Assembly: GCA_021784535.1 (NCBI GenBank)
Contig: JAJYHW010000049.1
Location: forward strand, 1-32,095
Reading direction: 5' to 3'
Length of the DNA: 32,095 nt
From: a bacterium
GTDB lineage: Bacteria; Patescibacteriota; Microgenomatia; Levybacterales; UBA12049
The notes beneath the pieces are model-generated. The model worked only from the letters and a program-made list of their open reading frames with translations, was not told the DNA's origin and did no database searches. Made by a program: the position numbers and the translations under genes. Shown one piece after another: positions 15,685-27,340 of this stretch (position 1 is the stretch's first letter; each line of letters opens with the position of its first letter).

Positions 15685-15715
15685 AAAGTCATAAAGAGAA
15701 TTGCTTGATGACTTT
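15685..15715 (+). repeat. Hairpin in the glmS 5' leader built from heptad-like units
   Basis: aaagtcat (15685-15692) pairs perfectly with atgacttt (15708-15715). The flanks read taagtct/taaagtc and gatgact/tttgaca/tgatgac with 7-nt spacing. Confidence 0.5.
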
Positions 15716-15742
15716 TGACATGATGACATTTGGCTGTTACAT

Positions 15743-17605
15743 ATGTGCGGCATATTTGGCTATATCGGTAAAAAAACAAACGCGACAGAGATCGTTTTTG
15801 GCGGGCTCAAAACGCTTGAATATCGCGGATATGATTCCTGGGGAATAGCAATCAAAGATCAAAGATCTAAGATCAAAGATCAAAGGCTAATCGTTGAAAA
15901 AGAAACTGGCAAACTACCAAATGCTCTTCCTAAATCTTCAATACTAAATCTTCAATCCTCCCTCGCCATTGGTCATACCCGATGGGCAACGCATGGCGGC
16001 GTGACTGTAGCCAACGCACATCCGCATCTGGATTGCTTCAAGCAAATTGCTGTTGTTCATAACGGTATCATTGAAAATTTCCAGGAGCTCAAAAAAAAAC
16101 TTGCAAAACAGGGACATATATTCCACTCCCAAACCGACACGGAAATTGTCCCTCATTTGATTGAAGAAATCATGAATCCTTCTTCCCTGAGCGAACGAAG
16201 CGAGTCGAAGGGGGAAAATCAAACTAGCCTTCGACAGGCTCAGGCAAAAAAAGAATTTACAACTGCAGTCCGTGAAGCTTTTAATCAACTACAAGGGATG
16301 AATGCAATTGTTGCCGCATACGCTCCCTCAAATGAAATCATTGCTGCCAAAAATGGATCACCGCTTGCAGTGGGAATCGGTAAAGATGAATTATTTATCG
16401 CTTCGGACGCTTCGGGCATCTCAGAATACACAAAAGACGTGATCTTTCTCGCAGATCACCAGATGATTATTCTTGGAGAAAAGCTAAAACTTCTTAAGCT
16501 TCCAAACGGAAAAGCAATCAAACCGGAAATAACCAAACTCACCTGGCATTTTGAAAATACAGAAAAAGGCAACTATCCGCACTTCATTTTGAAAGAAATT
16601 CATGAGCAACCCAACGTTATTAAACATATTGCCCTCGCCTATTCCGACGAAGCAAAAAAACTTGCAAAGTTGATCAAAAAAGCATTCGGCACCTTTATGC
16701 TCGGTTGCGGCACCGCATCATATGCAGGACTTGCAGGTACCTACCTTTTCTCATCAATCGCAAGAAAACATATCAACTTCACCATCGGCTCTGAATTCAA
16801 ATATCTTGAAGATTACGTACAAAAAGGCACACTCGTGATCCCTATTTCGCAATCAGGTGAAACAATTGATGTTGTCGAGCCGGTTGAAAAAGCCAGAAAA
16901 AAAGGCGCGACTATTGCCGCGCTTGTCAATGTCCCTGGCTCTACTCTCTATCGGCAGGCAGATCACAAATTCCTGCTCGGTGCAGGCCAGGAAAAAGCAG
17001 TTGTGGCAACCAAAAGTTTCATGAGCATGTTCTCAATTCTCTTTCTCACAGCATATACTATTATCGATAAGCCGCAGGATGCCAAAAAACAGCTTCTCAT
17101 CGCAGCTGAAAATATCAACATGATTTTAAAAGATAAAAATAAAGCTAAGATCAAAAAACTTGCAGAAGAAATCAAAAAAAGTGAACACATCTATCTCCTC
17201 GGACGAGGACTAGCCTACGCGACTGCTCTGGAGGCGGCACTAAAAATCAAAGAGACAAGCTATGTGCACGCGGAAGGTTTTGCCGGCGGAGAACTCAAGC
17301 ATGGCGTCATTGCGTTAATTGAAAAAGCAACTCCGTGTATTATTTTTGCGCCGGATGATGATACCTATGAAGAAATTATTTCAAACGCGCAGGAAGTAAA
17401 AGCGCGCGGCGGCTTCATCATCGGCATCGGTCCCAAAAATAACGAAGTTTTTGACCGGTTTATTCAAACAGCAAGCTGCAGAGAAGCAACATTGCTTGGA
17501 CAAATCGCCGTTGCACAGCTCCTCGCCTATTATCTCGCACTCGCCCGAGGTATCAAAGATCCGGACAAACCCCGCAATTTGGCAAAATCCGTAACGGTAA
17601 AATAA
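15743..17605 (+). CDS. glmS: Glutamine--fructose-6-phosphate aminotransferase (isomerising)
   Basis: The N-terminus is MCGIFGYIG (catalytic Cys2). It also has HTRWATHG, two SIS domains, and the C-terminal PRNLAKSVTVK. Repeat-derived extra segments are listed separately. Confidence 0.95.
   Translation: MCGIFGYIGKKTNATEIVFGGLKTLEYRGYDSWGIAIKDQRSKIKDQRLIVEKETGKLPNALPKSSILNLQSSLAIGHTRWATHGGVTVANAHPHLDCFKQIAVVHNGIIENFQELKKKLAKQGHIFHSQTDTEIVPHLIEEIMNPSSLSERSESKGENQTSLRQAQAKKEFTTAVREAFNQLQGMNAIVAAYAPSNEIIAAKNGSPLAVGIGKDELFIASDASGISEYTKDVIFLADHQMIILGEKLKLLKLPNGKAIKPEITKLTWHFENTEKGNYPHFILKEIHEQPNVIKHIALAYSDEAKKLAKLIKKAFGTFMLGCGTASYAGLAGTYLFSSIARKHINFTIGSEFKYLEDYVQKGTLVIPISQSGETIDVVEPVEKARKKGATIAALVNVPGSTLYRQADHKFLLGAGQEKAVVATKSFMSMFSILFLTAYTIIDKPQDAKKQLLIAAENINMILKDKNKAKIKKLAEEIKKSEHIYLLGRGLAYATALEAALKIKETSYVHAEGFAGGELKHGVIALIEKATPCIIFAPDDDTYEEIISNAQEVKARGGFIIGIGPKNNEVFDRFIQTASCREATLLGQIAVAQLLAYYLALARGIKDPDKPRNLAKSVTVK
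15851..15885 (+). repeat. Five tandem heptamers (ATCAAAG x4 plus ATCTAAG) inside the glmS coding sequence
   Basis: The DNA reads atcaaag atcaaag atctaag atcaaag atcaaag and encodes IKDQRSKIKDQR. This loop is about 5 aa longer than in E. coli GlmS. Confidence 0.8.
16186..16244 (+). repeat. Palindromic (REP/RPE-like) element embedded in frame in glmS
   Basis: cctgagc (16186-16192) pairs with gctcagg (16238-16244), and gtcgaagg (16204-16211) pairs with ccttcgac (16228-16235). It encodes ...SLSERSESKGENQTSLRQAQ..., part of a segment about 26 aa longer than the equivalent E. coli region. Confidence 0.75.
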
Positions 17606-17623: not shown

Positions 17624-17652
17624 TTGATAGTTATAGAGAGATATGATAAAAT
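17624..17652 (+). promoter_or_regulatory. Candidate promoter TTGATA-17-TAAAAT for secE-nusG-rplKA
   Basis: ttgata lies at 17624-17629 and taaaat at 17647-17652. Confidence 0.4.
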
Positions 17653-17691
17653 ACGAAGACTTGACACCATTTGGATGGTGTATTTGTAGTC

Positions 17692-17874
17692 ATGATCACA
17701 CCGGTAACGTTTGTTCGCCAGTCATATGATGAATTAAGACAGGTTGTTTGGCCGTCACGAAAAGAAATATTTCGATTAACAGGCATTGTGATCATTTTAA
17801 GTATTCTGACAGGGCTTTATATCGGAGGGCTTGACTGGATCTTTACACAGGCCATACAACTGTTATTGAAGTAA
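17692..17874 (+). CDS. secE: Preprotein translocase subunit SecE
   Basis: It is a 60-aa protein with a single C-terminal TM segment. The string ELRQVVWPSRKEI is typical of SecE, and the gene sits immediately upstream of nusG. The ATG at 17692 is preferred to the TTG at 17671. Confidence 0.8.
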   Translation: MITPVTFVRQSYDELRQVVWPSRKEIFRLTGIVIILSILTGLYIGGLDWIFTQAIQLLLK

Positions 17875-17878
17875 TGTG

Positions 17879-17933
17879 AAATGACCAATGACACATATCT
17901 AATTGGTCATTTATCATTGAGCATTTATCATTT
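17879..17933 (+). repeat. Heptad-periodic hairpin in the secE-nusG spacer
   Basis: aaatgaccaat (17879-17889) pairs with attggtcattt (17902-17912) over 11 bp. The arms read aatgacc/aatgaca and ttggtca/tttatca/ttgagca/tttatca. Confidence 0.6.
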
Positions 17934-17938
17934 AATTT

Positions 17939-18523
17939 ATGGATACACCAGTACAACAAAAACCAAGAGAAACAGACGAAAAGACACAAGCTCTTTCTGA
18001 CAAAGGCAAGTGGTATATCCTTCATACGTACGCGGGCCATGAAAACAAAGTTGAACGGTCACTCAAACAGCGTGTCGAATCAATGAAATTTACCGACCGC
18101 GTATTTGATATCATCGTTCCGACACGAAACACCATCAAAGTCTCGCAGGGCAAAAAAGAAACTGTAAAAGAAAAAATCTTCCCCGGATACGTTCTTGTGA
18201 AGATGATTCTTGATGATGAAACATGGATTATGGTACGAAGCACGCCAGGTGTCACCTCTTTTATCGGCGCTGGCAATAAGCCAACACCGATTTCTGAAAA
18301 AGAAGTTGAAGCGATTCAGAAATTCATGAAACTGGAAGAGCCGATGTATAAAGTGCAATTCTCAGTCGGCGAAGCTGTCAAGATCACTGACGGACCATTC
18401 ACAGAATTTTTGGGAACTATTGAATCTATTGATGAAGCGCGAGGAAAATTAAAAATACTAGTCAGTATTTTTGGTCGCGAGACACCGGTAGAGCTTGATT
18501 TTCTTCAAGTGAAGAAAATCTAG
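17939..18523 (+). CDS. nusG: Transcription termination/antitermination factor NusG
   Basis: KWYILHTYAGHENKV marks the NGN domain, and a C-terminal KOW region (GEAVKITDGPF) follows. Synteny with secE and rplK supports the call. Confidence 0.95.
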   Translation: MDTPVQQKPRETDEKTQALSDKGKWYILHTYAGHENKVERSLKQRVESMKFTDRVFDIIVPTRNTIKVSQGKKETVKEKIFPGYVLVKMILDDETWIMVRSTPGVTSFIGAGNKPTPISEKEVEAIQKFMKLEEPMYKVQFSVGEAVKITDGPFTEFLGTIESIDEARGKLKILVSIFGRETPVELDFLQVKKI

Positions 18524-18527
18524 AACA

Positions 18528-18586
18528 GGGCATAGTGGATAGTGAATAGGCAAACTTTTCTCTATCCCCTATAACCTATAACCTAA
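18528..18586 (+). repeat. 59-nt structured element, copy 1, ending 3 nt before the rplK ATG
   Basis: gggcatagtggatagtgaataggcaaacttttctctatcccctataacctataacctaa is identical to 19013-19071. Confidence 0.9.
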
Positions 18587-18589
18587 TCT

Positions 18590-19012
18590 ATGGCTAAAAA
18601 AATAAAAACACTTATCAAGATAGCACTTCCTGCAGGAGCAGCAACACCGGCACCGCCCGTCGGTACAGCTCTTGGACCTCATGGACTCAACATCATGGAG
18701 TTTGTCAAAGCGTATAATGATAAGACAGCTGAGCTTAAAGGCAATATCATTCCTGTTGTGATCACTGTTTACGAAGATCGCACTTTTAGTTTCATCACAA
18801 AGAAACCACCAGTTGCTGAAATGATTAAAAAGGCAATTGGCAAAGATAAAGGCAGTCAGAAACCTGGACGTGATAAAATTGCTGTACTGACGATGGATCA
18901 AGCGCGAAAAATTGCAGAAGACAAATTGGAAGATTTAAATACTGACGATATTGAGATGGGTGCCCGCGTTGTCGCTGGGACAGCCCGCAGTATGGGAATT
19001 GCTGTTGAATAA
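18590..19012 (+). CDS. rplK: 50S ribosomal protein L11
   Basis: The 140-aa ORF carries [24 protein letters not shown], typical of L11. Confidence 0.95.
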
Positions 19013-19071
19013 GGGCATAGTGGATAGTGAATAGGCAAACTTTTCTCTATCCCCTATAACCTATAACCTAA
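19013..19071 (+). repeat. 59-nt structured element, copy 2, starting right after the rplK stop and ending 4 nt before the rplA ATG
   Basis: It is 100% identical to 18528-18586. Confidence 0.9.
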
Positions 19072-19075
19072 ACTT

Positions 19076-19930
19076 ATGGGAAAAATCAGAATTAAAACAA
19101 TCGGAGATGAAGAACAGGAGAAAGTAGACGCAAAAAAGGCGCAAGCTCGAGCTATTGCTAAAAAAGCCCGTGAAGAAGCTGAGGCACGAAACGCAGCTGC
19201 TGAGGGAAATAAACCACAAGCGCAAGAAGCTAAAACTGAAAAACAAACTGAGCAAGCTACTCCTGAGCCTAAAAAAGAGAAGGTTGTAGTAAAAAAAGCT
19301 ATTTCAAACAAAAAGAAACAGTCTGACAGTTACCAGAAAGTCACCGCTTTTGTTGATAAAAACAAAAAATATAAACTGAGTGAGGCTCTTTTGCTTCTCG
19401 GAAAACTCAAAAGAGCAGCATTTGATGAAACTGTCGAACTTCATATCAATACTACTGAAAAAGGGATTTCAGGAAGCCTTACTCTTCCCCATGGAACCGG
19501 AAAAACAACACGGGTTACTGTCGCAAATGCAAGTGAAGATCCAAAACAGGTGGATGATCTGATTAAAGCAATCGAATCGGGCAAAATTGACTTTGATGTC
19601 CTGATAGCAACTCCTGAAACAATGCCAAAATTGGCAAAGGTTGCCCGTGTCCTAGGACCCCGTGGCTTGATGCCAAATCCGAAAAACGGCACCGTCACAC
19701 CAAAACCTGATGAAATCGCGAAAAAATTTGCCGGCGGCCAATTTAATTACAAAACTGAAGCTAAATTCCCGCTTCTGCATCTTGCAGTTGGCAAACTCTC
19801 TTTTGGCGATAAAAAACTTGAAGAAAATATCATCACAGCAATACATGCTGTCAAAACAAAAAATATTAAATCCATAACCTTAAAACTAACCATGAGTCCG
19901 GGAATTAAAATCGAAACAGCAAGTCTTTAA
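19076..19930 (+). CDS. rplA: 50S ribosomal protein L1 with an N-terminal Lys/Ala/Glu-rich extension of about 80 aa
   Basis: The L1 core begins near YQKVTAFVDKNKKYKLSEAL and includes LPHGTGK and GPRGLMPNPK. No alternative start codon lies closer to the core. Confidence 0.9.
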   Translation: MGKIRIKTIGDEEQEKVDAKKAQARAIAKKAREEAEARNAAAEGNKPQAQEAKTEKQTEQATPEPKKEKVVVKKAISNKKKQSDSYQKVTAFVDKNKKYKLSEALLLLGKLKRAAFDETVELHINTTEKGISGSLTLPHGTGKTTRVTVANASEDPKQVDDLIKAIESGKIDFDVLIATPETMPKLAKVARVLGPRGLMPNPKNGTVTPKPDEIAKKFAGGQFNYKTEAKFPLLHLAVGKLSFGDKKLEENIITAIHAVKTKNIKSITLKLTMSPGIKIETASL

Positions 19931-20215
19931 TATGCTTTCGTTACGACAAAAGCAACTCTACGAAACATATAAACACTCACATAACAGCAACTTTTAATCG
20001 ACTTACCTGTCGAAAAGAAATAATCAAAAGTATGCCAGCATGCCCGGCTTATCTCCTTTTTGATCACTTTTGTGATAACATCAAACCTGTATTGTTCTTG
20101 TTGGATAAGTTGAACATCTGCCATACAAGCATTAAAAGATTGCTTCACTTTAGTATTTTTCCGTTTTAAAAAACTGCCCGTTTCTATTCTTGTCTAATAA
20201 AATTTTAAATAGATA

Positions 20216-20244
20216 TTGACAAATGCAATTTTATCGCATATACT
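20216..20244 (+). promoter_or_regulatory. Promoter TTGACA-17-TATACT for the Fur-family/metal-ABC operon
   Basis: ttgaca lies at 20216-20221 and tatact at 20239-20244. Confidence 0.65.
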
Positions 20245-20251
20245 AATGCGA
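20234..20251. promoter_or_regulatory. Inverted repeat TCGCAT-N6-ATGCGA overlapping the -10, a candidate Fur/Zur-type operator
   Basis: tcgcat atacta atgcga has 6-bp perfect arms. It resembles the TCGnA...TnCGA-type Zur boxes of Firmicutes (recalled, not checked). Confidence 0.5.
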
Positions 20252-20264
20252 GTTAGTTGCAAAT

Positions 20265-20692
20265 ATGGTAAACGCAAAAATAAAACATGATTGCAAAACA
20301 GAACTAAATTATGTTGCTCTTCGCGCAACACCGGCGAGAATTGCCATCATGAAGCTACTGACAAACCGCTGGATGTACAAACAATGATAGATTATCTAAA
20401 TCAACAAGAAATTAAAACTGATCCAGCAACAGTCTTTCGTATTGTTAATATGTTCAAAGAAAAAGAACTTTTACAATCTATTCAATTAAATGAGAGAAAA
20501 ATCCGCTATGAATTATCTTCAAAACCATATCATCATTTTGTCTGTGAACAATGTGGTGCTATTCAAGACATTTCAGACTTCAGTATTAAAGCAGTTGAAG
20601 ATGAAATTCAGGAAAAAAGACATATTAAGATAAAAAGTCATTCTCTAGAATTTTTCGGACTCTGTAAGGATTGCCAAAATAAAACAAATTAA
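20265..20692 (+). pseudogene. Fur-family metalloregulator (Zur-like) with a -1 frame discontinuity near 20358-20366
   Basis: Frame A from ATG 20265 gives MVNAKIKHDCKTELNYVALRATPARIAIMKLLTN..., a typical Fur N-terminal helix, and stops at 20385-20387. Frame B continues KPLDVQTMIDYL...TDPATVFRIVNMF...HHFVCEQCG...CKDCQ. The total of 428 nt is one nt short of a 142-aa Fur-sized ORF. Confidence 0.75.
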
Positions 20693-20694
20693 TT

Positions 20695-21609
20695 ATGAAA
20701 AAATCAGTATTTTTTATTATTATTGTTCTTCTTATCATCGGCTTCTTAGGATTCTTACTAGCAAACAGAAAACAGACAAGTCGATTGTCTTCATCAACCA
20801 TTCAAATCGTTGCGGCAGAAAATTTCTATGGAGATATCGCAAAACAACTTGGTGGAAATAAAGTACAAGTTCTGAGTATCCTTTCCAATCCGAACGCAGA
20901 TCCACATGAATATGAGTCAAGTGTCCAGGATGCAGCAGCGGTTTCAAAAGCCAATATCGTTATTAAGAACGGAGATGGATATGACACATGGATGGACAAA
21001 TTACTTTCAGCTTCCCCAAATGCAAATAGAGTTGTACTAACTGGTGCAGATATTGCAAACCATAAGCTACCTGATAATCCTCATATATGGTATGGTATTG
21101 ATAATATACAAACCATTGCTGCAAGCATAACTAATGCTCTGAAAAAAGCTGATCCAGCAAATAGTGCAACATTCGATAGCAATCTCCAAACCTTTGATAA
21201 CTCTCTACAACCATTGCGTCAAAAAATGAATGACATTAAAACAAAATATAATGGTACACCTGTTGGATTAACGGAAACAATCTATCTTTATCAGACAGGG
21301 CCAATGGGACTCAACGTTTTAACGCCAATCGCATTTGAACGTGCTATTGCAGAAGGGAATGATCCATCGGCAAATGACGTTGCAACGGCAAACGATCAGA
21401 TAACGAAAAAACAAATAAAAGTATTGATCTACAATGCTCAGACAGTAACTCCGATAACAACCAACTTACAAAATAAAGCAAAAAGTAATAACATTCCGCT
21501 AGTAACAGTAACCGAAACCATGCCGACAAATAAACATTACCAAAGCTGGATGATGGATCAACTGAATAATCTCCAGCAGGCGTTGTCAACCAGTTCCGTC
21601 TCTCATTGA
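20695..21609 (+). CDS. Metal ABC transporter substrate-binding protein (ZnuA/TroA/MntC cluster A-I family)
   Basis: It has an N-terminal TM or signal anchor and the strings ENFYGDIAKQLGG, NADPHEYE and NPHIWY. No His-rich loop is present, so metal specificity is open. Confidence 0.85.
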   Translation: MKKSVFFIIIVLLIIGFLGFLLANRKQTSRLSSSTIQIVAAENFYGDIAKQLGGNKVQVLSILSNPNADPHEYESSVQDAAAVSKANIVIKNGDGYDTWMDKLLSASPNANRVVLTGADIANHKLPDNPHIWYGIDNIQTIAASITNALKKADPANSATFDSNLQTFDNSLQPLRQKMNDIKTKYNGTPVGLTETIYLYQTGPMGLNVLTPIAFERAIAEGNDPSANDVATANDQITKKQIKVLIYNAQTVTPITTNLQNKAKSNNIPLVTVTETMPTNKHYQSWMMDQLNNLQQALSTSSVSH

Positions 21610-21628
21610 GATATAAAACAATAATCAT

Positions 21629-22396
21629 ATGCAAACATCTACTATCGAACTTAATAAAGTAGCTCTTACACTAAATGAAAGAACGATCCTCCATGATATC
21701 TCTCTTATCATAAACGAAGGTGAATTTGTGGCCATTCTTGGACCAAACGGTGCGGGGAAAAGTACGCTTCTCAAACTTCTTTTAGGCCTCTATAAACCAA
21801 CTGCCGGTAATATAGCTATTCTTGGTAAATCACCCAAACGTGGAAATAGAGATATTGGTTATGCTCCTCAGCACCGGACACTTGAGACGGATTTAGCACT
21901 TCGCGCAAGAGATGTTGTAGGATTTGGGCTTGATGGTAACCAATGGGGCATCACACTGCCCAATAAAAATCGCGACAAGTATATTGAACAAGCACTGGAT
22001 GAAGTTGATATGCTTCATCTTGCAAATATGCCCGTCGGGCAACTGTCAGGCGGCGAACAACAACAATTGCTTATTGCACAAGCGTTATTAACTTATCCCA
22101 AAATTCTTATTCTTGATGAGCCGCTTTCTAATCTTGATATTATTCATTCAGAAGGAATCGTTTCGCTTATCAATAAGATAGCCAGAAGCCGTAAAATGAC
22201 TGTCTTATTGGTAACCCACGATGTAAATCTGCTCCTTCCTGTTATTGATAAAGTACTTTATATGGCAAATACCCATTGCGCAATTGGTAAACCGGAAAAA
22301 GTTATCACCAATGACAATCTTACCCAGTTGTACGGGTCTCCTGTTGAAGTGATAAAAGCCCGTGGACGGTTATTTGTCATCGGTGAAGAAACATAA
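21629..22396 (+). CDS. Metal ABC transporter ATP-binding protein (ZnuC-like)
   Basis: It has Walker A GPNGAGKST, the signature LSGGEQQ and Walker B ILILDEP. Confidence 0.9.
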   Translation: MQTSTIELNKVALTLNERTILHDISLIINEGEFVAILGPNGAGKSTLLKLLLGLYKPTAGNIAILGKSPKRGNRDIGYAPQHRTLETDLALRARDVVGFGLDGNQWGITLPNKNRDKYIEQALDEVDMLHLANMPVGQLSGGEQQQLLIAQALLTYPKILILDEPLSNLDIIHSEGIVSLINKIARSRKMTVLLVTHDVNLLLPVIDKVLYMANTHCAIGKPEKVITNDNLTQLYGSPVEVIKARGRLFVIGEET

Positions 22397-22400
22397 CTTT

Positions 22401-23207
22401 ATGCTTGAAATATTGCAGTATCCATTTATTCAAAACGCATTTATTGCATCCCTTTTTATTTCAGCAGTTTCTGCTATTGTCGGCTATTTTATCCTTGCAA
22501 GAAAACTTACTTTTGCAGGACATGCATTTTCTCATGTAGGATTTGCCGGAGCAGCAGGTGCTGTTTGGCTTGGGATCAATCCTTTATGGGGTCTTCTTTC
22601 ATTCACAATAGCTGCTGCTGTAGCAGTTGGTTCATTAGGGAAACAATTCCGGGAACGGGATGTGCCAATTGGTATTATCCTGACTCTTGCGATGTCATTC
22701 GGCGTACTCTTTTTATTCCTTTATGCAGGATATGCTGAAGAAGCTTACAGTATTCTATTTGGGACAATTCTTGGAATCAACACAACCAATGTCCTTATCA
22801 CAGCTCTTTTTAGTCTTTTAACAATTGGTGCGATTGCTTTCATTTTTCGTCCGCTGTTATTTAGTTCTATTGATCCGGAAGTAGCTGAAGCACGTGGTGT
22901 TCCAACAAATTCTTTATCAATCATTTTTCTTATCCTTGTTGCGATAACGATTTCAATTTCAGTACAAATTGTCGGCGTTCTTCTTATTTTTACCCTTCTT
23001 GTCGGACCCGCAGCAACAGCAATGAGGCTTAGCAAAAATCCGTATAATGCAATCGGGCTTGCTGTTCTTCTTGGGCTTTTGTATAGCTGGGTAGGAATTT
23101 TTCTAGCTGCAATTACTAATTTACCCGTCTCTTTTTATATTGCGACACTTTCATTTGGTGTATATTTACCGGTTCGGTTATATATTAATTCACCAACCAA
23201 AAAATAA
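22401..23207 (+). CDS. Metal ABC transporter permease (ABC-3/ZnuB family), copy 1
   Basis: It is a multi-TM protein with FSSIDPEVAEARGVP, typical of the ABC-3 family. I place the start at ATG 22401 (MLEILQYPFIQNAF). Confidence 0.85.
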   Translation: MLEILQYPFIQNAFIASLFISAVSAIVGYFILARKLTFAGHAFSHVGFAGAAGAVWLGINPLWGLLSFTIAAAVAVGSLGKQFRERDVPIGIILTLAMSFGVLFLFLYAGYAEEAYSILFGTILGINTTNVLITALFSLLTIGAIAFIFRPLLFSSIDPEVAEARGVPTNSLSIIFLILVAITISISVQIVGVLLIFTLLVGPAATAMRLSKNPYNAIGLAVLLGLLYSWVGIFLAAITNLPVSFYIATLSFGVYLPVRLYINSPTKK

Positions 23208-23209
23208 CT

Positions 23210-24070
23210 ATGCTTGAATTACTAAGTCATCAATTCGTACAAAATGCCTTTATTGCGGGTACAATTATTGCAATAGTCTGTGCTATTGTCGGCTATTTTG
23301 TCGTATTGCGACAACAAGCATTTGCATCCCACGCGCTCTCGCATATCGGTTTCGCAGGAGCAACGGGTGCAATTCTTATAGGATTTAGCTCTTTAACAGG
23401 TACATTTATATTTACCGTACTGGCAGCACTCGGTATGGGAACGCTTGACAAACGGCTAGCGGGAAGAGATGTTGAGATAGGGATGGTATTATCATTTGCG
23501 CTGGGTCTTGGTATATTGTTTCTGAAAATTTATACTACCAACGCGAATGAGGCAGTTGGCATTCTTTTCGGGTCAATCTTAAGTGTTACGTCGTATGATT
23601 TATTTTTGAGTATTATTACCGGAGCTATAACACTTCTTTTTGTTATCTTTTTATTCAGACCTCTTCTGTTTGCATCAGTTGATCCGGAAGTAGCTGAAGC
23701 ACGGGGCGTTCCAGTAAAACTTCTTTCAAGTGTATTTATGATACTACTTGCAGCAGCGGTAACAGAAGCTATTTTAATCGTAGGTGTACTGTTAGTCTTT
23801 GCCTTACTTGTTGCTCCCGCTGCTGTTGCACAGCATTTAAGCAAGAGGCCTTTTCTTACTATACTTTATTCTATCTTTTTTGGATTATTCTTTACCTGGG
23901 GAGGATTACTGCTTGCCTTATTATTTCATGGTCCAGTGAGCTTCTTTATAGCAGGATTGGCATCTCTTTCATATTTAGTAATTGTTCCATTTGCCCATCT
24001 TATTTCACCTCATTTATATAATACCTTTTATCACTCCAATAGGGAAAATAAATTTAATGTTGAAGTTTAG
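23210..24070 (+). CDS. Metal ABC transporter permease (ABC-3/ZnuB family), copy 2 (tandem paralog)
   Basis: MLELLSHQFVQNAF and FASVDPEVAEARGVP parallel copy 1. Confidence 0.85.
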   Translation: MLELLSHQFVQNAFIAGTIIAIVCAIVGYFVVLRQQAFASHALSHIGFAGATGAILIGFSSLTGTFIFTVLAALGMGTLDKRLAGRDVEIGMVLSFALGLGILFLKIYTTNANEAVGILFGSILSVTSYDLFLSIITGAITLLFVIFLFRPLLFASVDPEVAEARGVPVKLLSSVFMILLAAAVTEAILIVGVLLVFALLVAPAAVAQHLSKRPFLTILYSIFFGLFFTWGGLLLALLFHGPVSFFIAGLASLSYLVIVPFAHLISPHLYNTFYHSNRENKFNVEV

Positions 24071-25209
24071 TTATTAGATAATTTTAATGATTTTGTAGCA
24101 TAATATGCAGCAAGATAAGTGACTATCGGAACTACAAGAACAAGTCCCATTGTCCCTGAAATAGTTCGGATTATTTCTTCATTAAGTGTTTCGCTATTCA
24201 GGATTACCCAAAGAGGATAGTAAGAGGAATTATAAAAAAGAAAAATAAAAACGGTAAGAGATGAACCCGCATAAGCAAGAACTAACGTGTTAATAATTGA
24301 TACCACATGCTCTCGACCAACACGCAATCCTTTCCAAAATAATTGTTTCTGATTAAGTTGTTTATCAGTTTTTGCCAATTCAAAAATAGTTGCTGTTTGA
24401 GTAGTCGTAATATCATTCAGTGCGCCAAGAGTTCCTATAATTATTCCGCCTAGAAGTAGCCCTTTCAAATTAATTAAATGTCCACTACCGAAATGAACTA
24501 AAATTGAATTTTCATCAATATATCCAGTCAGTAAAGAAAGATTAACAAAAAGAACTGACAAACCGACAGTCAAAAGGAGTACAAAAAACGTTGAGACAAG
24601 TGCGATAGTAGTTTGTTTTGAAAAACCATGAGCAGTATATGTCGTAAGAAGCAAAATCACTACAGCACCTATAGTACAAGTCGTCAAAGGATCAGAACCG
24701 GAAAGAATTTGAGGAGCAACAAAAGCAAAAATAACTGCAAGACTAATTCCGAGTCCGATAAATGAACCAAGCCCTCGCCATCCAACAATAAGCATTACAA
24801 AAACAACAAAAACAACAACAATCAACGAGAGTGGTGCTAAGCGATATCTACTTTCAATACTATATGTTGGTTTCCCTGTAGAGCTACTGGCCTTTTGCAG
24901 GATTACGGAATCACCAATATGTAATTCAAGATCACTGACCCCTTGAGTATCATACTGTACTCGAACATTTTGTCCTACGTCATTTCCATTCTGTATTACA
25001 ACGTCCAGAGTTTCAATCGCTGAATGATAATCTGAATACGGATTTTGTTTTATCCCTTCAATTCAGACAACCGTTGCTTTCATAAATTCAGTGGTAAGAG
25101 ATGTTGAAGAGACTTGTTGGGCATGAGCAAGAGGTGCTGACAGAAAAATAACAATACTTATAAAACCGATTAGAAAGAGAATAAAATAATTAAGTCTTCT
25201 TTGAAACAT
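24067..25209 (-). pseudogene. YibE/F-family membrane protein interrupted by an in-frame TGA (25063-25065)
   Basis: The ORF-track piece (24067-24825) is only the TM domain. The same frame continues upstream to ATG 25209 and encodes a signal peptide (MFQRRLNYFILFLIGFISIVIFLSAPLAHA) plus the usual extracytoplasmic N-domain. One TGA at codon 49 breaks it. The total of 381 codons is a typical YibE/F size. Confidence 0.7.
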
Positions 25210-25695
25210 ATACATTAAGTATCTCATGAATTTAGATTTTAAGAAAGCTGTTTTGCGATATGTAAATTTCAGAGTTTCTGACGTGAATCACTGAGGAGAA
25301 GAGTTCTTATCTCTAGAAAAGGGTTTAAATTTTGCAATCTCCAGGTGCCAAAGAGTGACCTAAGTATTGATTTTGTTAATTCTTTAGGAGATTTTGTCCC
25401 AAAGAATATTTTTTTAATGACAATTTTCTTACTGCTCTTTCTGTTATATTGTTTCAGAGCTGAACACCTTCATATCTCTTGAAGGTCTATGAGTGCTTGC
25501 TGCAAAATCTCAATATCACTGGCTTGCCGGTAAATGATTGCAATCAACTCTCCTTTTGACAGAGAAAGTAACTCCATAGACAGTATAATTCAACGTTACT
25601 TACTTTGATATGGTTTTAGCAATGACTTTGAAATTTTTCTAAGAAAGATACGTCTGTCTATTCTTTGCCTATTCTTTTCCTTTAAAAGCCGACTA

Positions 25696-25724
25696 TTTAC
25701 AGATTGCAAAACTCCTGCTATAAT
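25696..25724 (+). promoter_or_regulatory. Strong promoter TTTACA-17-(TGC)TATAAT, a candidate rplJL promoter
   Basis: tttaca lies at 25696-25701, followed by a 17-nt spacer and tataat at 25719-25724 preceded by TGc (extended -10). Confidence 0.6.
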
Positions 25725-25793
25725 AGCATTATATCCAAAGACAGTAGGCGGAGCGTAAGCGACATAAATCCTACCGAGGAGCAACATGAGTTA

Positions 25794-25859
25794 AAAGTTC
25801 AAGATTAAAAAGTAAAAGTTATAACTTTTCACTGTACATTTTGAACTTTACGCTCTCTA
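25794..25859 (+). repeat. Heptad-periodic hairpin inside the rplJ leader
   Basis: aaagttcaa (25794-25802) pairs with ttgaacttt (25851-25859), and aaaagtt pairs with aactttt at the apex. The arms read aaaagtt/caagatt/aaaaagt/aaaagtt. Confidence 0.6.
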
Positions 25860-25860
25860 T

Positions 25861-25884
25861 GACACTCCTCGGAGTGTCTTTTTT
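25861..25884 (+). terminator. Canonical intrinsic terminator (attenuator candidate) 127 nt upstream of rplJ
   Basis: gacactc-ctcg-gagtgtc is followed by tttttt. Confidence 0.7.
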
Positions 25885-26011
25885 ATTTTGAAAGGGAGAG
25901 AGCGAGAAACACAAAATTTTTTTTCGTTTTCACTAGATTCTTATTGCCAAGGATGTAAGGCTTCTGAGAATTTGAAAACAAAAAAATTTTCGTTTCCGAG
26001 CGAAAACAACT

Positions 26012-26560
26012 ATGGATAACACAACAGTTAAAATCAGCCAAAATAGACAGAAAAAAGAACAGCTTGTTGCTGAATTACAAGAAAAAGTTAAAAAATCTAC
26101 CGGCATGGTCTTTGCCAACTATCAAGGCCTCACTCATCAGCAACTGGAAAATTTAAAAAAGAACCTGAAGAAAACTGAATCGGAATTTGTCGCTGTTAAA
26201 AATACCCTTTTGCAAATTGCACTAAAGGATAAAATTGACAAAGAAGCAACAAAAGAATACTTCGAACAGCCAACCGGTGCAATGTTTATCTATAATGATA
26301 TTGTTAATCCTCTCAAAGAACTTTCCAAAACAATTAAAGAATTAAAAATGCCCGTTATCAAATTTGGTATTCTTGAAGGAAAATTTGTTACTGACAAAGA
26401 AGTTACCAAAATTGCATCGCTTCCCCCGCTGCCTGTCCTTCGCGCGCAGCTGCTTGGACAGATGCAGGCACCTATCTCAGGACTGCATCGCGCTTTGCGA
26501 TGGAACTTACAATCTCTGGTAATGACACTTAATGCAGTTAAAGATAAAAAAACGGCTTAG
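26012..26560 (+). CDS. rplJ: 50S ribosomal protein L10
   Basis: The 182-aa ORF carries typical L10 sequence (FANYQGLTHQQLENLKK, LPPLPVLRAQLLG) and lies next to rplL. Confidence 0.95.
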   Translation: MDNTTVKISQNRQKKEQLVAELQEKVKKSTGMVFANYQGLTHQQLENLKKNLKKTESEFVAVKNTLLQIALKDKIDKEATKEYFEQPTGAMFIYNDIVNPLKELSKTIKELKMPVIKFGILEGKFVTDKEVTKIASLPPLPVLRAQLLGQMQAPISGLHRALRWNLQSLVMTLNAVKDKKTA

Positions 26561-26563
26561 GTT

Positions 26564-26628
26564 TTAGGGACTAGGTTCTAGGGACTAGGAAAATTATAAA
26601 ATTCTAAACCCTAACACCTAACCCCTAA
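26564..26628 (+). repeat. Heptad-periodic hairpin in the rplJ-rplL spacer
   Basis: The 5' arm is ttagggac/taggttc/tagggac/tagg and the 3' arm is ctaaacc/ctaacac/ctaaccc/ctaa. They pair as helices of 6, 5, 5 and 3 bp separated by 2x2 mismatches. The strong SD (gaggagg) of rplL follows directly. Confidence 0.75.
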
Positions 26629-26644
26629 TGAGAGGAGGTGTAGT

Positions 26645-27037
26645 ATGGCAAAATTAAATAAAGATGAATTGATGCAAGCAATTGAAGAAATGTCTGTTCT
26701 TGAACTTTCCGATCTCGTGAAAGCACTGGAAGAAAAATTCGGTGTTTCCGCTGCTGCTACAATGGTTGCTGCTGCACCTGCGGGTGGGGCTGCTCCAGCG
26801 GGCGGAGAAGCTGCTGAAGAACAAACAGTATTCAATGTCGTTATTGCGAACGCCGGTGCTCAGAAGATCGCTGTTATTAAAGCACTTCGAGAACTTGTTC
26901 CAACTCTTGGCTTGAAAGAAGCAAAAGACTTAGTTGATGCGGCTCCGAAAGAAGTCATGAATCAAGTCAACAAGAAAACTGCTGAAGAAGCTAAAGAAAA
27001 ATTAACAGCTGCAGGAGCAACTGTTGAACTGAAATAA
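26645..27037 (+). CDS. rplL: 50S ribosomal protein L7/L12
   Basis: The 130-aa ORF has an Ala/Gly/Pro hinge and the C-terminal domain [10 protein letters not shown]...[10 protein letters not shown]. Confidence 0.95.
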
Positions 27038-27041
27038 AAAA

Positions 27042-27088
27042 ATCAGGAAGTCGGAATCATTACTACTGTTTTCACTTCCTGATTTTTT
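27042..27088 (+). terminator. Intrinsic terminator after rplL
   Basis: atcaggaagt (27042-27051) pairs with acttcctgat (27074-27083) and is followed by ttttt. The loop is long (22 nt). Confidence 0.65.
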
Positions 27089-27340
27089 GCTGTTTAGCAA
27101 CTATAGATCATCTAAGAACGAGGTGTATATTGTCAGAACGATGCTGCCTTGTTGAAATGATAAAAAACGCAGCACTAGCATAATACCCCCGAATACAACG
27201 TAGCCAAACAATAGATAAATCCAAAAAATATATATACCGAACAAATAGCAAATTGTATATTGACAACCCTGCAGTAGTTTGTTACTGTATATATAGTTAA
27301 ATTGTAGATTGATCGCTATCAATACAGTTGACTCGAGTAT

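Follow-up and report, generated by a model that had tools for sequence, protein, structure and literature searches.

The internal spacers of the secE-nusG-rplK-rplA and rplJ-rplL gene cluster in an uncultured Candidatus Levybacteria bacterium, together with the leader of rplJ, contain imperfect hairpins whose arms are built from tandem 7-nt units. Relatives of its NusG place the host in the Microgenomates group of the Candidate Phyla Radiation (CPR, or Patescibacteria), and its genome was covered over 32 kb by the stretch analyzed here (32,095 nt of contig JAJYHW010000049.1, G+C 34-44%; hereafter the window). The five elements, E1 to E5, are real and non-random, and they are a lineage-level instance of a known repeat class rather than a new or conserved regulatory RNA family. 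They are probably heptanucleotide arrays of the simple sequence repeat (SSR) or short tandemly repeated repetitive (STRR) type, arranged in inverted pairs, generated by slippage and copied locally, with at most side effects of the kind associated with repetitive extragenic palindromic (REP) sequences.

The clearest case of a heptad element is E5 in the rplJ-rplL spacer (26558-26628, forward strand, as are E1 to E4 and the glmS-leader hairpin), identified from its sequence, tandem-repeat rows, fold and autocorrelation. The 5′ arm carries five TAGs every 7 nt, at 26558 (the rplJ stop codon), 26565, 26572, 26579 and 26586, and after a 15-nt loop the 3′ arm carries four CTA(A) units at 26604, 26611, 26618 and 26625; the Shine-Dalgarno sequence of rplL (26632-26639) stays outside the fold. 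E1 in the secE-nusG spacer (17879-17934), recognized by the same four lines of evidence, lies between the secE stop codon (17872-17874) and the nusG ATG (17939), starting 5 nt past the former and stopping 4 nt short of the latter. It forms a perfect 11-bp stem (17879-17889 with 17902-17912) around a 12-nt loop, with further heptads on the 3′ side; TGA recurs each 7 nt in the 5′ arm, and the 3′ arm runs on as NNNNTCA heptads. E2, a 60-mer in the nusG-rplK spacer (18527-18586; sequence, fold and autocorrelation), has TAG cores at 18533, 18540 and 18547 and CTA cores at 18562, 18569, 18576 and 18583, with GCAAACTTTTCT as its loop, and lies 3 nt past the nusG stop codon and 3 nt short of the rplK ATG. 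E3 in the rplK-rplA spacer (19012-19071) repeats this sequence without a change (100% identity along all 60 nt, the copies 485 nt apart) and runs from the final base of the rplK stop codon to 4 nt short of the rplA ATG; Shine-Dalgarno sequences are lacking behind both copies. Being one 60-mer present twice, E2 and E3 are not two independent examples. E4 (25794-25859), in the leader of rplJ (ribosomal protein L10), is a long, variable hairpin, and the 7-nt period of its arms is weak. Cores vary inside this one genome, with TGA/TCA in E1, TAG/CTA in E2, E3 and E5, and AAGTT-like units in E4. All window elements lie between codirectional genes, and the hairpins begin 0-5 nt after stop codons.

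All five cluster elements proposed in a first-pass annotation of the window were recovered at the positions it gave, and the heptad periodicity of their arms was borne out. In per-arm autocorrelation against 2000 shuffles (periods 3-11), period 7 was significant in both arms of all five (p ≤ 0.004 per arm), and no other period was consistent. The period-7 match scores were 6/7 and 18/24 for E1, 12/15 and 16/20 for E2/E3, 18/25 and 15/19 for E5, and 14/21 and 12/20 for E4 (p = 0.004 each), the 5′ arm of which shows period 6 too. A tandem-repeat scan (TRF) gave period-7 rows at 17907, 18568, 19053, 26565 and 26610. At a score of at least 10, the window holds four period-7 and four period-14 segments, compared with ~0.07 expected from dinucleotide shuffles (about 50-fold), and 0-1 segments at each other period. 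Of the window's 30 spacers, heptad arrays occupy the four internal to the secE-rplL cluster and none of the remaining 26.

E5 folds into four 5-6-bp helices split by 2x2 A/C-type loops (ΔG -23.7, z -2.6), E2/E3 into 2-6-bp helices with mostly single mismatches between them (ΔG about -20, z -3.0 to -3.7), and the fold of E4 has a z of -4.9 against shuffles. The annotated pattern of 4 paired and 2-3 mismatched positions per heptad is therefore a rough approximation, from which the perfect stem of E1, the longer helices of E5 and the single mismatches of E2/E3 all depart. The elements do share one architecture, as had been claimed. A proposed sixth member in the glmS leader (15685-15716) is a real stem-loop (ΔG -12.2, z -3.4) with a repeat period of 8, and stands outside the heptad set.

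Period 7 also prevails across ~1.2 Mb of CPR loci. The 27 Levybacteria loci contained 42 period-7 and 41 period-14 segments, compared with 1-15 at other periods, and the 53 other CPR loci contained 46 and 36, respectively. Arrays were noncoding in 69 cases and coding in 43 (n = 112), with noncoding sequence making up 12% of bases. An inverted partner within 100 nt (at most 2 mismatches per 14 nt) was found for 25 of 69 arrays, against 0 in a reversed control and 10 in a complement control. The enrichment in the secE-nusG/ribosomal-protein cluster that the annotation had suggested holds in this larger sample: arrays occupy 27 of 181 internal secE-rplL spacers and 21 of 562 other codirectional spacers (odds ratio (OR) 4.5, p = 9e-7, 88 loci, a p-value that kinship among CPR loci makes optimistic), and their density is 2.7 per kb in internal cluster spacers vs 0.41 elsewhere.

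The spacers were compared with those of relatives (loci from other genomes, labeled L001, L085 and so on). In L085 and L087, whose NusG proteins are 95-97% identical to that of the window, and also in L027, L001 and L002, most positions where the window has elements of 60-80 nt are occupied by spacers of 1-13 nt. L089, L090 and L092 (NusG 89-93%) carry TAG/CTA heptad hairpins of the same design, with other sequences, in the same spacers; the nusG-rplK element of L090, for example, reads GGGTATAGAGTTTAGGGTATAGGGTATAG-loop-CTAGTCCCTAAACCCTAGACCCTACCCCCTAAACCCTAA. The shared plan is (NNNN-TAG)n, loop, (CTA-NNNN)n, with TGA/TCA instead in the secE-nusG elements of the window and of L090. The heptad phase and a 3-4-nt core (TAG/CTA, TGA/TCA) thus recur at orthologous spacers of relatives and the other positions differ, much as the annotation had anticipated, and unit numbers differ between species at these spacers too. 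A short-query nucleotide search (blastn-short) with E1, E2/E3 and E5 against 80 related loci found no homologues. Near-identical elements do occur in non-orthologous spacers: the L092 rplK-rplA element matches the L094 nusG-rplK element, the L091 rplK-rplA element matches that of L089 rplJ-rplL, and the L027 rplK-rplA element matches the L005 secE-nusG element.

Two further kinds of small hairpin were seen in the spacers of this clade. An 84-nt hairpin, TCGCAGAA...GCGCTTGAAAG, lies in rplK-rplA of L092 (8088-8172) and in nusG-rplK of L094 (932-1015) at ~90% identity, and represents a second family of small elements in these spacers, one without heptads. A mini-hairpin, CTCCTGAAAGGAG, directly follows the heptad arm in the rplK-rplA and rplJ-rplL spacers of L009 and the rplK-rplA spacer of L027, where the Shine-Dalgarno sequence is sequestered by pairing to an anti-Shine-Dalgarno sequence upstream of it, just before the start codon.

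The design is widespread beyond the CPR. The pattern TTAG-N4-TAG-N4-TAG-N(4-30)-CTA-N4-CTA-N4-CTA-N4-CTA had at least 120 matches in Joint Genome Institute (JGI) metagenome contigs with a G+C of 0.31-0.68, against a rough chance expectation of ~1. In IMG/VR, at least 120 matches were obtained at period 7, compared with 33 at period 6, 16 at period 8 and 25 for a complement-only control. Overall, the TAG/CTA design spans a G+C of 0.29-0.72 and includes viral contigs. Among the matches listed, none of 80 metagenome loci has its hairpin inside an open reading frame (ORF), and the hairpins fill their spacers, the median distances to the ORFs on either side being 8 and 11 nt; the upstream ORF often terminates on an array TAG. 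Flanking genes in the metagenome sample were codirectional in 35 cases, convergent in 11 and divergent in 2. From their protein sequences, we recognized among the flanking genes rpsM-rpsK, rplX-rplE, rpmE, groES-groEL, dnaK-dnaJ, sucCD, ndk, ilvC, zwf/gnd and purE. Several metagenomic or 'viral' contigs (L167 at 3144, 4579 and 5974; L233, L288, L292) have at least three TAG/CTA heptad hairpins within a few kb, the first of those in L167 lying between rplX and rplE, and many IMG/VR matches have cyanobacterium-like units (TTAGTCG, TTAGTGG).

The elements are best explained as heptanucleotide repeats. The design is an array with a short conserved core, mostly TAG and sometimes TGA, then a short loop and a complementary CTA/TCA array. 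Such arrays would originate in the DNA itself, when replication slips in steps of 7 nt, and would probably spread between nearby spacers by template switching, gene conversion or an unknown form of mobilization. Local copying between nearby spacers would give each genome its own unit flavor. In agreement with this, identical units were shared by 7.6% of within-genome spacer pairs, measured inside 20-kb loci, and by 0.48% of between-genome pairs (16-fold, p = 1.7e-6), and similar arrays lie nearer each other (median 2.1 vs 5.0 kb, p = 7e-4). Periodic mismatches arise because each arm repeats a unit in tandem and only the core is common to all repeats; they do not point to a selected bulged structure. 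As 7 is not a multiple of 3 and the core is a stop codon, an array places stops in all frames of both strands, so that the flanking genes are not extended. Compact CPR operons, with their very short spacers, may therefore tolerate such arrays, and the start region of the next gene would remain usable. In the polycistronic mRNA the arrays must adopt imperfect stem-loop structures (-14 to -24 kcal/mol) immediately behind the stop codon of the upstream gene, and any effects at the RNA level are likely to be REP-like (protection of 3′ ends, or termination and re-initiation), secondary and not conserved.

The first-pass annotation had instead favored selection on structure over simple copying, a view that the data do not uphold. 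E2 and E3 are exact copies, and units are shared within a genome, more so between near neighbors. A unit-permutation test of arm covariation revealed no unit-specific complementarity (real score 158, permuted 160), and sense and antisense folding showed no asymmetry in either of two samples (22 vs 16, p = 0.25; 13 vs 22, p = 0.39). Because the closest relatives have no elements, the arms do not covary and there is no strand bias, no required function is indicated, and the arrays may well be neutral. A comparison of stop-codon enrichment by ORF context was dropped as circular, since stop codons themselves decide what counts as intergenic.

Several results weigh against a neutral slippage origin. 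Slippage itself was not observed, and four strains at 99.92-99.97% identity show no indel or copy-number change in any element, which means that the arrays are not hypermutable at this scale. A 4-7-fold enrichment in the cluster is unexpected under pure neutrality, unless local copying or high transcription causes it, although the enrichment p-values are optimistic, since the relatives are not phylogenetically independent. Two statistics hint at a constraint on the core: no trinucleotide is more enriched in the unit consensuses than TAG/CTA (47 vs 19.6 expected), and the variable unit positions are contiguous, as for a core plus linker, in 24 of 58 cases vs 16.7 expected (p = 0.026). In E5, moreover, the single variable paired position is fully complementary (G-C, U-A, G-C, A-U). 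The cluster enrichment and the conserved core are thus only partly explained, with possible contributions from local copying, from high transcription and from weak selection.

The main rival is plausible, albeit rather unlikely: the elements may be selected intercistronic RNA hairpins that protect the upstream cistron from 3′ exonucleases or couple and insulate translation. In the coupling version, the all-frame stops and the stem would halt ribosomes and free the downstream start only if the upstream gene is translated, thereby tuning the stoichiometry of SecE, NusG, L11, L1, L10 and L7/L12. REPs near stop codons affect both mRNA stability and translation, and much of the placement described above would suit such a role, including the cluster enrichment (all four spacers against none of 26 in the window; OR 4.5 across the CPR loci), hairpin starts 0-5 nt after stop codons with the first unit of E5 being the stop codon itself, the missing Shine-Dalgarno sequences of rplK and rplA behind E2 and E3, and the free one of rplL after E5. 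Fold energies below those of shuffles (z -2.4 to -3.7) and the recurrence of rpsM-rpsK, rplX-rplE, rpmE, groES-groEL, dnaK-dnaJ and sucCD, as we assign them, in an unbiased metagenome sample point the same way. Against this stand the 1-13-nt spacers of relatives with 95-97% identical NusG, which lack the element and show that the function is not required, the missing sense-strand folding bias and unit-specific covariation, and the many metagenome examples that flank ordinary metabolic genes or separate convergent genes. A broader version, in which (TAG N4)n-loop-(N4 CTA)n would be a selected pan-bacterial intercistronic module, acting as an all-frame stop with an insulating or coupling stem-loop or recognized by a conserved factor, and recruited to highly expressed operons (secE-nusG-rplKAJL, rpsM-rpsK, rplX-rplE, groESL, dnaKJ), is considered unlikely.

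Equally doubtful is an origin as non-autonomous mobile elements resembling MITEs (miniature inverted-repeat transposable elements), REPs or REP doublets forming hairpins (REPINs), copied into intergenic sites by a transposase whose gene lies elsewhere in the genome. The presence of the 60-mer in two identical copies (485 nt apart), the same element in non-orthologous spacers of different genomes, genome-specific flavors and a DDE_3 transposase fragment adjoining secE in L085 could all be read in this way, and the location downstream of ORFs in unidirectional or convergent gaps agrees with that of REPs (PMC3733652). However, the flanks of E2 (TAGAAC / TCTATG) and E3 (GAATA / ACTTATG) share no target-site duplication, nor was a clean terminal inverted repeat found by inspection, and MITE membership was rejected on the target-site evidence. 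The short palindrome tagged with GTAG/CGTC that characterizes REPs is likewise missing (PMC3733652): the arms are arrays of ATAG, TTAG or CTAG units rather than a single tagged palindrome, and REP/REPIN membership was set aside by that definition. Unit number and sequence vary continuously, which suits arrays better than discrete elements. The E2 core, sought as an exact match, is absent from JGI metagenomes (0 matches), and just 2 copies occur in 32 kb.

A periodic protein-binding scaffold, with a DNA- or RNA-binding protein placing one subunit per heptad core and coating both arms, is very unlikely. Units with a conserved 3-4-nt core and variable linkers, and cores in both direct and inverted orientation, would fit such a protein, and precedents for binding exist in ribbon-helix-helix repressors on 7-bp operator arrays and in cold-shock and S1 proteins on RNA. 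The ribbon-helix-helix omega repressor of pSM19035 binds contiguous WATCACW units in a 7-bp register upstream of promoters. Compared with these operators by sequence alone, the window units differ in sequence and their arms are split by a loop. Csp, S1 and CsrA have been proposed as binders of TAACTGA heptamers (PMC4679880). The cores differ within one genome and between genomes, however, no candidate protein was linked to the arrays, and close relatives lack the elements. Weak intrinsic terminators or attenuators between cistrons, another role suggested in the annotation, deserve almost no credence: the elements are stable stem-loops in transcribed spacers and E4 lies in a leader that regulates by termination, but E1, E2, E3 and E5 lack a T-run and are missed by a terminator scan that does find the terminator of that leader (25861-25878), and termination among nusG, rplK and rplA would cut off essential downstream genes that have no promoter in the 60-nt spacers.

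Three other assignments were considered for the elements and rejected. A G-quadruplex reading was dropped, as no element has four G3 runs; E5 has GGG, GG, GGG and GG, and E1, E2 and E4 have no G runs. TIGR arrays, a CPR-associated system of 36-nt repeats, were ruled out on period and size. An L1-binding site in E2/E3 had no Rfam support, and the nusG-rplK spacers of relatives measure 7-13 nt.

E4 requires separate treatment, since the heptad-periodic hairpin that had been annotated in the rplJ leader is present but is taken to form part of a known RNA. A covariance-model match to the L10 leader (RF00557) covers 25717-25894 on the forward strand, including a terminator stem (25861-25878) with its T-run, and a promoter-like site (25696-25724) begins before the leader and extends over its 5′ end. 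The match scored 43 bits against a gathering score of 44 (E = 2.5e-4, full-length model match 1-138), and at gathering thresholds the Rfam scan of the window gave no match; orthologous leaders in L001 (48 bits) and L027 (44.6 bits) exceed the threshold. The window copy resembles the family in its conserved 5′ L10-binding part (CCAAAGACAGUAGG...CCUACCGAGGAG), its terminator and its position directly upstream of rplJ, and differs from it in that the variable segment, which separates the L10-binding part from the terminator, carries an extra ~65-nt hairpin whose arms are 7-periodic. The equivalent segment in relatives ranges from ~25 to ~90 nt and is variable in sequence, with a heptad hairpin again in L009. 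E4 is treated as an expansion inside a genuine L10 leader, and that leader as a family member whose score the insertion lowers. The 5′ half of the terminator (CUCCUCGG) is complementary to CCGAGGAG further upstream in the leader, which would place E4 in the loop of a would-be antiterminator helix, a site likely to tolerate expansion. Among the Rfam matches in E-value mode only the L10 leader is credible, those to mir-3156, NsiR4, IS009 and CrcZ being chance matches.

Seven-nucleotide repeats were also found in coding sequence. The glmS gene (15743-17605) contains ATCAAAG five times in tandem (15851-15885, forward strand; tandem-repeat scan and relatives), within the coding region, so the process that makes 7-nt repeats also makes in-frame protein insertions. 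A 14-nt repeat lies further downstream in the same coding region (15930-15956). The glmS repeats encode IKDQRSKIKDQR, which lies in a variable loop; L003, L085, L027, L002 and L090 have a loop shorter by 6 aa.

In the window, glmS is followed by secE (17671-17874), nusG (17939-18523), rplK (18590-19012) and rplA (19076-19930), then, 3′ of rplA, by genes for a Fur-like protein and for a zinc/metal ABC transporter (20291-24070), and by rplJ (26012-26560) and rplL (26645-27037), both 3′ of the ABC transporter genes. Upstream of secE (17624-17681), a promoter-like TTGATA-17-TAAAAT precedes a small hairpin, ACACCATTTGGATGGTGT, and the motif GATAAAATAC...GACTTGACACCAT... is kept upstream of secE in L087, L089 and L091-L094. 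Ribosomal protein L1, encoded by rplA, has 284 aa and an N-terminal extension of ~80 aa rich in Lys, Ala and Glu, its NCBIfam match beginning at residue 81. The Fur/Zur-like regulator (20256-20692), which lies upstream of the metal ABC transporter, is frameshifted near 20366, with the N-terminal 40 codons in one frame up to a stop and the remainder in another frame; near-identical strains L081, L082 and L084 show no nucleotide difference at this site (L083 ends before it). A YibE_F-family membrane-protein gene on the minus strand (24067-25227) has a single in-frame TGA (25063-25065), leaving an apparent 'noncoding' gap of 770 nt, and could be a pseudogene or subject to readthrough or recoding. 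On the 3′ side of rplL, a near-perfect long hairpin without heptad periodicity (27030-27096, AAAAAATCAGGAAGT...ACTTCCTGATTTTTT) looks like a bidirectional terminator and was the source of the spurious mir-3156 match.

Identification of the elements as heptanucleotide repeats removes a tempting lead, namely that of new ribosomal-protein autoregulatory RNAs. In CPR genomes the arrays are the main content of operon spacers that otherwise measure 1-13 nt, and for annotation purposes they account for odd long spacers, missing Shine-Dalgarno sequences, sub-threshold Rfam matches such as that of the L10 leader, and in-frame insertions such as those in GlmS. The stop-codon core, the shared local flavors and the cluster enrichment make the questions of why the repeat is 7 nt long and why it occurs in inverted pairs more testable.

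The first-pass annotation knew of no named family that fits the elements, but closely similar repeats, including inverted pairs with stem-loop potential, have been described (PMC4692102, PMC4679880). REPs, bacterial interspersed mosaic elements (BIMEs) and REPINs (Di Nocera et al. 2013, PMC3733652; Bertels & Rainey 2011, PMC3116915), are alike in being short imperfect palindromes that often form larger hairpins as inverted pairs, lie downstream of ORFs in unidirectional or convergent gaps (as in our metagenome sample), are species-specific and are transcribed. They differ in consisting of a single palindrome of 20-40 bp that has a stem of 6-13 bp, a short loop and, at its end, a GTAG/CGTC tag, in having a link to the REP-associated tyrosine transposase (RAYT), and in having no internal 7-nt period. 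The TAACTGA heptamers of marine Beggiatoaceae, cyanobacteria and Bacteroidetes contain stop codons and occur just upstream of starts without Shine-Dalgarno sequences in ribosomal-protein operons (MacGregor 2015, PMC4679880). The window elements share these three traits, and in both the forward orientation is impossible within ORFs. TAACTGA repeats are nearly all direct (1 indirect in 170 sets) and have one fixed sequence, whereas the type described here has inverted pairs and many units.

Comparable in architecture are the Xanthomonas and Nostoc repeats, GGGAATC and GGGGA(T/C)T. Xanthomonas has ~185 GGGAATC arrays, including 70-75 inverted pairs per genome with stem-loop potential; from species to species they stay in place but change in length and sequence (Rehm et al. 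2015, PMC4692102). Similar to the window elements, these repeats comprise two close convergent heptamer arrays with stem-loop potential and units with core and variable positions, keep their position among related species while length and sequence vary, and are transcribed within operons (PMC4692102). Convergent complementary arrays were likewise found here, in the CPR sample (25 of 69, against 0 and 10 in the controls) and in IMG/VR (at least 120 against 25). The Xanthomonas and Nostoc units are G-rich and form G-quadruplexes, a property that the window units, without four G3 runs, do not share.

The closest overall likeness is to long SSRs (LSSRs) and STRRs. According to the available summaries of Mrazek et al. 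2007 (PMC4679880, PMC4692102), most bacterial genomes have more heptanucleotide repeats than any other class of long SSR, and polymerase slippage is the suggested origin; cyanobacterial STRR heptamers go back to Mazel et al. 1990, as cited in PMC4692102. In both cases tandem 7-nt units are over-represented, mostly intergenic and species-specific over many loci, and, as far as those summaries go, their function is not understood and polymerase slippage is the proposed cause. The arrays reported here equally consist of head-to-tail 7-nt units with a period-7 excess, are mainly intergenic, and repeat a genome-specific unit over several loci. We found no report of heptamer repeats in Patescibacteria in the literature. 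With a CPR host, short (2-5 units) and imperfect arrays, mostly inverted pairs and a TAG/CTA stop-codon core as their distinguishing features, the elements of the secE-rplL cluster extend the unexplained bacterial excess of 7-nt repeats to the reduced genomes of the CPR.

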